1,013 bases of DNA from Naegleria gruberi (taxonomy: Eukaryota): the NCBI GenBank assembly GCA_000004985.1, contig GG739618.1; one strand, given 5' to 3'. This document shows, piece after piece, positions 92-405 of the stretch (position 1 is the stretch's first letter; each line of letters starts with the position of its first letter). A program made the translations under genes and the position numbers. The notes beneath the pieces are model-generated. The model made no database searches. It saw only the letters and a program-made list of their open reading frames with translations, and was not told the DNA's origin.

Positions 92-119
92 TTGATATTA
101 TTATATATCATTGTATAGT
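92..119 (+). promoter_or_regulatory. Candidate sigma70-type promoter: -35 TTGATA (92-97), 16-bp spacer, -10 TATAGT (114-119)
   Basis: The two hexamers match consensus at 5/6 and 5/6 with ideal spacing. Such matches are frequent by chance in AT-rich DNA. No downstream gene is evident. Confidence 0.2.
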
Positions 120-136
120 CAAATAACTATTATATC
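112..136 (+). repeat. Direct repeat module TGTATAGTC...ACTATTATATC, copy 1
   Basis: The 9-mer TGTATAGTC (112-120) recurs exactly at 976-984. After a 5-nt divergent block, ACTAT and TATATC-like sequence recur at the same offset (864 bp) with a 2-nt indel. The module overlaps the -10-like hexamer TATAGT (114-119). Confidence 0.5.
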
Positions 137-341: not shown

Positions 342-375
342 CGGAATCGTCTGAATCGCAGCCGTTCGGGAGTTG
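342..375 (+). repeat. R1 family copy B: CGGAATCGTCTGAATCGCAGCCGTTCGGGAGTTG
   Basis: 33/34 identical to 44-77 at an offset of 298 bp. It contains the internal tandem GAATCG-TCT-GAATCG. Its 5' half forms the left arm of the 348-405 stem-loop. Confidence 0.85.
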
Positions 376-405
376 TCATTTACTTCGTAACTTGCGATTC
401 AGGCG
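348..405 (+). other. Imperfect stem-loop: 14-bp stem (348-361 with 392-405) and a 30-nt loop
   Basis: The stem has 12 Watson-Crick pairs plus two G·U-type positions (350/403 and 361/392) when read as RNA. At the DNA level it is a perfect 10-bp inverted repeat plus 2 flanking pairs. The loop (362-391) contains a small internal 4-bp hairpin, TTAC (380-383) with GTAA (387-390). An A-rich run (406-420) follows on the + strand, so this is not a canonical + strand terminator. Confidence 0.6.
391..405 (-). repeat. Inverted partial R1 copy (reverse complement CGCCTGAATCGCAAG)
   Basis: The reverse complement of 391-405 matches the R1 core CGTCTGAATCGCAGC (348-362) at 13/15. The 10-mer CTGAATCGCA (351-360) is perfectly complementary to TGCGATTCAG (393-402). 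Confidence 0.75.

Follow-up and report, generated by a model that had tools for sequence, protein, structure and literature searches.

The 1,013-nucleotide stretch of Naegleria gruberi DNA analyzed here (the window) contains, between positions 347 and 406, an inverted repeat in which one copy of a dispersed element, R1, faces a reversed relative. Is such an arrangement kept for the helix that it can form, or does the helix simply follow from the way in which the motifs that compose it are laid down? The 5′ arm lies at 347-360 (TCGTCTGAATCGCA) and the 3′ arm, as delimited by a repeat search, at 393-406 (TGCGATTCAGGCGA). Each is 14 nt long, 13 of the 14 positions pair (93% complementary), and the core, 351-360 with 393-402, is a perfect 10 bp. 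The 32-nt spacer (361-392) begins with a 15-nt motif that we call box A (361-375; GCCGTTCGGGAGTTG on the plus strand). In plus-strand RNA, the helix would comprise 15 pairs, 347-361 with 392-406, two of them G·U (T350·G403 and G361·T392). An earlier note on this DNA had described 14 pairs (348-361/392-405), two of them G·U, around a 30-nt loop; that description is exact, and T347-A406 adds a fifteenth pair. Its picture of a dispersed repeat meeting an inverted relative also holds, the two partners being R1 at 342-375 and a reversed element of a kind that we call box B.

The predicted fold is more stable than shuffled controls on both strands, as the note had anticipated for a functional hairpin. 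Plus-strand RNA folded at −30.7 kcal/mol, whereas its shuffles averaged −16.0 (z = −5.6) and none of 200 did as well; the minus strand gave −20.9 kcal/mol (z = −3.5), and single-stranded DNA gave −14.6 kcal/mol (z = −3.65). When the window is shuffled by dinucleotides, however, 18% of the shuffles contain a perfect inverted repeat of at least 10 bp with a loop of at most 80 nt, so stem length by itself is not decisive. The decamer CTGAATCGCA is another matter: allowing at most one mismatch, it occurs four times in the window against 0.03 expected, which indicates that the inverted repeat derives from a repeated motif and not from chance.

To place the window, we scanned metagenomes with 22 nt of R1, which returned three contigs (L001 to L003), and collected additional plasmids with the intron endonuclease and a spacer ORF as queries. 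Positions 1337-2360 of L003 are 97% identical to the whole window, and L015 and L016 match it at 97.8%. All three of these near-identical contigs carry eukaryotic 18S, 5.8S, and 28S genes. L003 (14.4 kb) also has a GIR1 branching ribozyme and a 254-aa ORF encoding a His-Cys-box homing endonuclease, the Naegleria italica counterpart of which is 89% identical; twin-ribozyme SSU introns of this type, with GIR1 and a homing endonuclease, are known in Naegleria and Didymium (PMC4167309). L015 and L016 are without the SSU intron, and the 13,799-bp period of L015 indicates a circular molecule. Given the matching contigs with rRNA genes, the Naegleria-type intron endonuclease, and the circular period, the window belongs to the nonribosomal spacer (NRS) of a circular rDNA plasmid (CERE) from Naegleria, on its 18S-proximal side.

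Position 1 of L003 lies about 10 bp upstream of 18S, and the rRNA is encoded on the minus strand of both L003 and the window. Counting upstream from 18S, the hairpin is about 1.7 kb away in L003 and 2.06 to 2.11 kb away in L015, where the distance is greater because a 372-bp unit with two R1-type elements (R1a and R1′, below) is duplicated. That unit is present twice in L015 (13554-13926) and in L016, and once in L003 (1337-1600; 2-264 in the window), and it represents strain variation in the copy number of box A modules between near-identical plasmids.

The NRS has a GC content of 36%, and the window is AT-rich, with 16 direct and 25 inverted repeat families in the repeat search. No ORF in the window exceeds 73 aa, and looking up the two longest retrieved no record. 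A tRNA scan of the window found none, and a scan against Rfam (cmscan, E ≤ 10) gave only subthreshold chance matches, none of them over 340-410. Searching the window against phage and plasmid collections with blastn returned nothing relevant, and the exact R1 pattern had no match in viral contigs or in GTDB genomes.

We sorted the spacers into lineages: A (the window, L003, and L015/L016), B (L001/L002), C (L011), D (L008, which comes from a Naegleria andersoni-like assembly), E (L004), and F (L012). To these we added the NRS of Naegleria fowleri TY, taken from the supplement of PMC13398248, the last 30 nt of which are the same as in the other lineages. In the further contigs that bear the homing endonuclease (among L019-L024 and L005-L014), the upstream NRS was too short to inform. 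Sequence upstream of 18S is 76 to 91% similar between lineages over the first 200 to 345 bp. Among A, B, and C this similarity is gone by 0.9 to 1.07 kb from 18S; farther out, short motifs alone match. Lineage F stands apart: positions 1-2259 of L012, upstream of 18S, resemble no other lineage except in the last ~20 nt before 18S, and even the 200-bp block kept in all the others has no detectable similarity there.

Read on the rRNA-sense strand, R1 consists of box A (CAACTCCCGAACGGC), box B (TGCGATTCAG), and ACGRTTCCG, and a second element, R2, consists of ACT, box B, and box C (RSRATTCYGTTAATSCA). Common to both is GAATCGTCTGAATCGCA, as written on the plus strand of the window. Three R1-type elements lie in the window, all on the minus strand. 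R1b (342-375), the copy that enters the hairpin, is a full R1, reading CAACTCCCGAACGGC, TGCGATTCAG, and ACGATTCCG on the sense strand. It is 97% identical to R1a (44-77), a full R1 that has no inverted partner and is the most proximal to 18S. R1′ (136-169) is degenerate (65% in the repeat search) and has the box A variant CAACTTTTGAACGGCTGGGTTCTAGCC on the sense strand, a variant kept in lineage D (L008) and similar to TGAACGGCTCGTTTCTAGGCG of N. fowleri. Over 347-375, 29 nt of R1b are 100% identical in lineage B (L001 5228-5256), though the surrounding NRS cannot be aligned.

The R2 family has two copies with both box B and box C on the minus strand, at 670-716 and 890-936, where the decamer is mutated in the window to CTGAATCGAA and TTAAATCGCA, respectively, and intact in L003 and L015. 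A degenerate R2-like element, TTTATTTTCCCGAAATTCGCAAGT, lies on the minus strand at 611-634; it is 79% complementary to 390-413 and is the nearest relative in the window of the element that supplies the 3′ arm of the hairpin. That 3′ arm element, AACTTGCGATTCAGGCG (389-405, plus strand), is itself of the R2 type and is the sole inverted member in lineage A. The earlier note had taken it for a truncated R1, which the comparison does not bear out: it belongs to the second box-B family and shares with R1 only the box-B region. Its similarity runs on into AAGT, as in the R2 copies at 702-716 and 922-936, and two forward copies in lineage B (L001 3380 and 5572) match the 17-mer at every position.

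Several differences separate the strains within the window. Seven substitutions are clustered within about 26 nt at 916-941 compared with L003 and L015, converting the decamer CTGAATCGCA to TTAAATCGCA, and so destroying it, and creating GATC/CGATCG sites; the second R2 decamer has C710A. Either gene conversion or a decay of the R2 sites of this strain may account for these changes. At 634/635, a 10-bp tandem duplication (TAAAATTTTC) is present in L003 (1970-1979) and not in the window or L015, and homopolymer lengths differ at 539-556 and 740-750. We also considered a resemblance of GGTTCTAGCC to the Pol III B box and rejected it as weak and not conserved.

Box A and box B differ in their reach across the genus. 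The 17-nt form of box A, CAACTYYYGAACGGCT, is present in three to five copies per NRS in lineages A, B, C, and D, 1.2 to 3 kb upstream of 18S, with nearly all copies forward, i.e., in the orientation of the rRNA. N. fowleri TY has the box A core GAACGGCT three times, 1.59, 1.68, and 1.88 kb upstream of 18S, and CAACTCCTCAATGGCTGC at 2.33 kb. The fuller sequence is GGAACGGCTG at the first of the core positions and TGAACGGCTCGTTTCTAGGCG at the other two, and all of these boxes are forward. Box B, with at most one mismatch, has forward and reverse counts of 8 and 1 in lineage A, 9 and 3 in B, and 4 and 0 in C; lineages D, E, and F essentially lack it, and N. fowleri has none. This distribution indicates that box A is old and widespread and that box B belongs to one clade, and since box B is missing from D, E, and N. 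fowleri, it cannot be an essential element genus-wide.

Orientation and position are regular as well. L015 holds nine copies of the 17-mer GAATCGTCTGAATCGCA (at most three mismatches), all in one orientation, 1.2 to 4.5 kb upstream of 18S, and its sole reversed box B is the 3′ arm of the hairpin. Every full R1 in lineage A is forward, and the most proximal full R1 lies 1.18 to 1.41 kb upstream of 18S, in the same orientation, in A, B, and C, these copies being the positional counterparts of R1a.

We then compared the hairpin arrangement itself. Three strains of lineage A share the unit base for base, which is uninformative because they diverge by just 2 to 3%. The lineage B unit (L001 5228-5295; 2.18 to 2.24 kb upstream of 18S) consists of TCGTCTGAATCGCAGCCGTTCGGGAGTTG, 25 unrelated nt, and TGCGATTCAGGAGA. 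Its 10-bp core is intact, the outer pair G349-C404 is lost, and the spacer is 40 nt, with unrelated sequence. Compared with lineage A, the R1 of this head-to-head unit has the opposite orientation to the rRNA; the sense strand reads 5′-CTGAATCGCA...box A...TGCGATTCAG-3′ in A and B alike but with box A flipped between them. Inversion of a single large segment between A and B was considered and rejected, as a neighboring 36-nt motif changes order and keeps its syntenic orientation. In lineage C, an orthologous unit can be recognized by shared flanks (TAGAAGAT and GAATCCTGTTAATGCACATT), and it keeps box A and box C; the arms, CTAAATCGTA and GGGGATTCAG, form only 7 of the 10 core pairs, with interruptions.

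An arms-only alignment of the A, B, and C units was used to count covariation. None of the 14 pairs has changed on both sides, a comparison of low power with three lineages, and at the 6 of 14 pairs that deviate, each deviation breaks the pair. The earlier note held that absence of an inverted partner from all other R1 copies would speak against a functional hairpin, and by that standard the result is unfavorable: the copy at 44-77 and all others in L015 and L001 are without one. What leaves room for a structural role is that the partnered arrangement recurs in lineage B.

At the level of sequence, then, the conserved units are the boxes. The helix carries no sign of selection save its recurrence in two lineages, and the hairpin itself is the least conserved aspect. 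We favor, with moderate confidence, the reading that the boxes are double-stranded factor-binding sites and that the hairpin is a by-product. The stem-loop arises where a forward R1, with its box A and box B, abuts the lone reverse R2-type box-B element, and its hairpin or cruciform potential would be incidental to this one head-to-head pair and not itself required. The boxes would be bound as duplex DNA by nucleolar factors. Together, box A and box B would serve RNA polymerase I as a repeated module resembling a promoter or spacer promoter, with its most proximal copy at the distal edge of the conserved 5′-ETS-like sequence, and R2, with box B and box C, would provide auxiliary sites.

Four features speak for this reading: the elements are arrayed in one direction, the first R1 lies just past the conserved 5′-ETS-like block, copy number varies between strains, and box A is conserved genus-wide. 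The boxes are probably repeated Pol I promoter or spacer-promoter modules; for R1 we infer this identity from position only, since the promoter of the Naegleria gene is unmapped, and we found no mapped Naegleria Pol I start site in the literature. In the rDNA intergenic spacers of Xenopus, Drosophila, and plants, spacer promoters and enhancer repeats duplicate promoter sequence, in one orientation, ahead of the gene promoter, and they do so within chromosomal tandem arrays. R1 in lineage A resembles them in its same-orientation duplicates upstream of the gene and in a copy number that varies between strains, as theirs does between individuals.

The boxes are possibly also related to the origin, and the same elements may be active in plasmid replication in the manner of the Tetrahymena type I elements. 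Those elements, of about 33 nt, are conserved between species and dispersed in the upstream spacer (5′ NTS) of an amplified extrachromosomal rDNA, where they are common to the origin and promoter regions (PMC9967165). Box A is likewise short, present across species (lineages A to D and, as its core, N. fowleri), and dispersed in the upstream rDNA spacer. The likeness is one of analogy only, the type I elements being A-rich and bound by ORC via 26T RNA and by single-strand DNA-binding factors.

Not everything about the hairpin sits easily with its being a by-product. Lineage B has the head-to-head pair again, with box A in the loop, even though flanks and loop have turned over completely. Lineage B has further head-to-head pairs of the box-B type at L001 3556-3648 and 5654-5748 (ACTTTCGATTCA and TGAATCGAAAGT), with arms of 12 bp and a loop of 69 nt; a 169-bp segmental repeat contains one of these pairs. 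Short-range perfect inverted repeats number 4 to 10 per NRS against about 0.8 expected. In the window, a second hairpin begins just 15 nt from the first, at 421-490, with arms at 421-435 and 476-490 (ATATGACACAACAGG and CCTGTTGTGTCATAT) that form a perfect 15 bp around a 40-nt loop; neither arm differs among three strains, both substitutions (454 and 471) falling within the loop. Taken together, the recurrence in B, the additional lineage B pair, the nearby 15-bp repeat, and the excess of inverted repeats in the NRS mean that inverted pairs could be under selection.

The alternative that survives best, though we think it unlikely, is that the inverted pair works structurally, as a single-stranded hairpin or a cruciform at or near the CERE origin or a recombination site, with box A in the loop. 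The DNA fold is strong, at −14.6 kcal/mol for this hairpin as single strand and −30.3 kcal/mol (z = −5.5) for both hairpins together, and the flanks are AT-rich, with GC content down to 15 to 18%. The recurrence in lineage B counts in the same direction. The CERE origin lies somewhere within the NRS (PMC11008152, PMC13315211), and the second account places that of N. gruberi within a 2.1-kb NRS fragment. A 636-bp origin fragment of N. gruberi has also been described. For Didymium rDNA, moreover, cruciform-origin models have been proposed (PMC13182076).

Against this, the lineage C ortholog has a decayed stem, D and E have none, only one of the three to five box A copies per plasmid lies in a loop, and the yeast ARS consensus has no match in the window. 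The 10- to 14-bp stem would be adequate for a cruciform. Long spacers in inverted repeats, however, disfavor cruciform extrusion from duplex DNA, and the mixed-composition spacer here measures 30 to 32 nt (40 nt in lineage B). Cruciform potential has been noted in the upstream promoter region of Didymium and Physarum extrachromosomal rDNA (PMC13182076). The palindromes there are 140 bp long and lie in tandem units of 260 bp on linear chromosomes, whereas the window has one 10- to 14-bp inverted repeat among dispersed elements of 17 to 45 nt on a circle. To our knowledge, the Naegleria boxes have no sequence relation to those palindromes.

We give still less credence to the idea that box B marks polar barriers of the Reb1/TTF-I type, at which Pol I would terminate or replication forks would be blocked, the single reversed copy making a local two-way barrier. 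Over the three lineages, box B is forward 21 times and reverse 4 times. Pol I promoters often have terminator sites close by, as with mouse T0, yeast Reb1, and the Xenopus T3 box. Many of the box B copies arose by segmental duplication, however, which means that the orientation bias is not made up of independent observations, and the 3.4 kb that follow 28S, in which one would expect termination to take place, contain no box B.

An RNA role for the hairpin within a spacer or pre-rRNA transcript, whether to signal processing or to regulate in the manner of pRNA, seems to us improbable. The folds are strong on both strands, and G·U pairs lengthen the plus-strand helix, but the better-folding strand is antisense to the rRNA, and on the sense strand those G·U pairs turn into C·A mismatches, giving the weaker −20.9 kcal/mol. 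In lineage B the unit is inverted relative to the rRNA. The surrounding region is AT-rich and variable in copy number, unlike the conserved 5′-ETS-like kilobase nearest 18S. The suggestion of the earlier note that the hairpin might belong to a structured or processed RNA found no backing in the Rfam scan or in compensatory change across the three lineages.

A more speculative idea, to which we attach a similarly low and slightly smaller probability, is that the head-to-head box-B pair is a functional switch or an initiation structure. It could be an invertible cassette, an idea suggested by the 32- to 40-nt segment with box A having flipped between A and B while the arms stayed in place. In the initiation form, the hairpin would show box A as single-stranded DNA for replication or amplification of the ~4,000-copy plasmid, possibly acting through an NRS-encoded homologue of His-Cys-box nucleases.

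That the hairpin is a MITE or other mobile insertion, which the earlier note had raised, is very improbable: like MITEs, it has short terminal inverted arms made from a dispersed repeat, and two plasmids that have otherwise diverged share the R1 29-mer exactly, but the unit is too small at just 60 nt, encloses only 32 nt, has no target-site duplication (flanks GGAA|...|AAAT), is built from arm families that mostly occur as solo, same-orientation copies, and has no second whole copy in any CERE examined, each of which has one R1 with an inverted partner and otherwise solo R1 and R2 copies.

The motif family outweighs the hairpin, because the motifs mark candidate promoter or origin signals, and the hairpin would matter only if inverted pairs turn out to be selected. 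The hairpin is an ordinary example of the inverted repeats found among direct repeats in extrachromosomal rDNA spacers. The CEREs described from N. gruberi EGB, N. fowleri LEE and TY, N. pringsheimi, N. australiensis, and N. jadini are likewise circles of about 14 to 16 kb with a single rDNA cistron, an AT-rich NRS with direct and inverted repeats from 34 to 35 bp up, and a His-Cys-box ORF downstream of 28S (PMC5805870, PMC7714845, PMC11008152). Published accounts describe the NRS as poorly conserved (PMC10586121, PMC10112140, PMC13315211) and give its repeats by size alone, and according to recent papers poor conservation blocks identification of the origin by sequence comparison and hinders the making of episomal vectors for N. 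fowleri (PMC13315211, PMC13398248). In the accessible CERE literature we found no description of the box A and box B motifs or of the head-to-head pair, and the conserved box set, in a spacer supposed to be poorly conserved, appears to be undescribed there. The NRS is therefore not featureless: box A (CAACTYYYGAACGGCT) is kept in rRNA orientation in four lineages, its core is kept in N. fowleri, and in one clade it is joined to box B. These motifs are concrete candidates for work on the CERE promoter, origin, and minimal replicon, including those of N. fowleri.

Three further observations on these plasmids were made. A repeated motif, AAATGATGTTGG-N8-TGACTTATAGGGGG, is common to N. fowleri TY (about 1.27 to 2.03 kb upstream of 18S) and lineage E (L004, 0.93 to 2.2 kb). 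In N. fowleri it starts 22 nt past the GAACGGCT box, and R1′ of lineage A has TGACTATACA at a matching spacing of 41 to 42 nt (window 112-121, minus strand). The motif may resemble plant-type Pol I start sites (TATAGGGG).

The SSU gene with its intron is 99.4% identical between L001 (8145-9960) and L003 (12619-14434), whereas the NRSs of lineages A and B are unalignable beyond about 1 kb. This near-identity reflects either chimeric metagenome assembly across conserved rDNA or homogenization or intron spread between plasmid types.

Finally, free-standing ORFs resembling His-Cys-box endonucleases (PF05551) lie in the NRS downstream of 28S at L003 6341-7408 (minus strand), L001 1219-1983 (minus strand), and L015 7861-8916 (plus strand). 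Those of lineage A run in the rRNA sense and that of lineage B runs antisense to it, with intact homologues at 81% and 58% identity.
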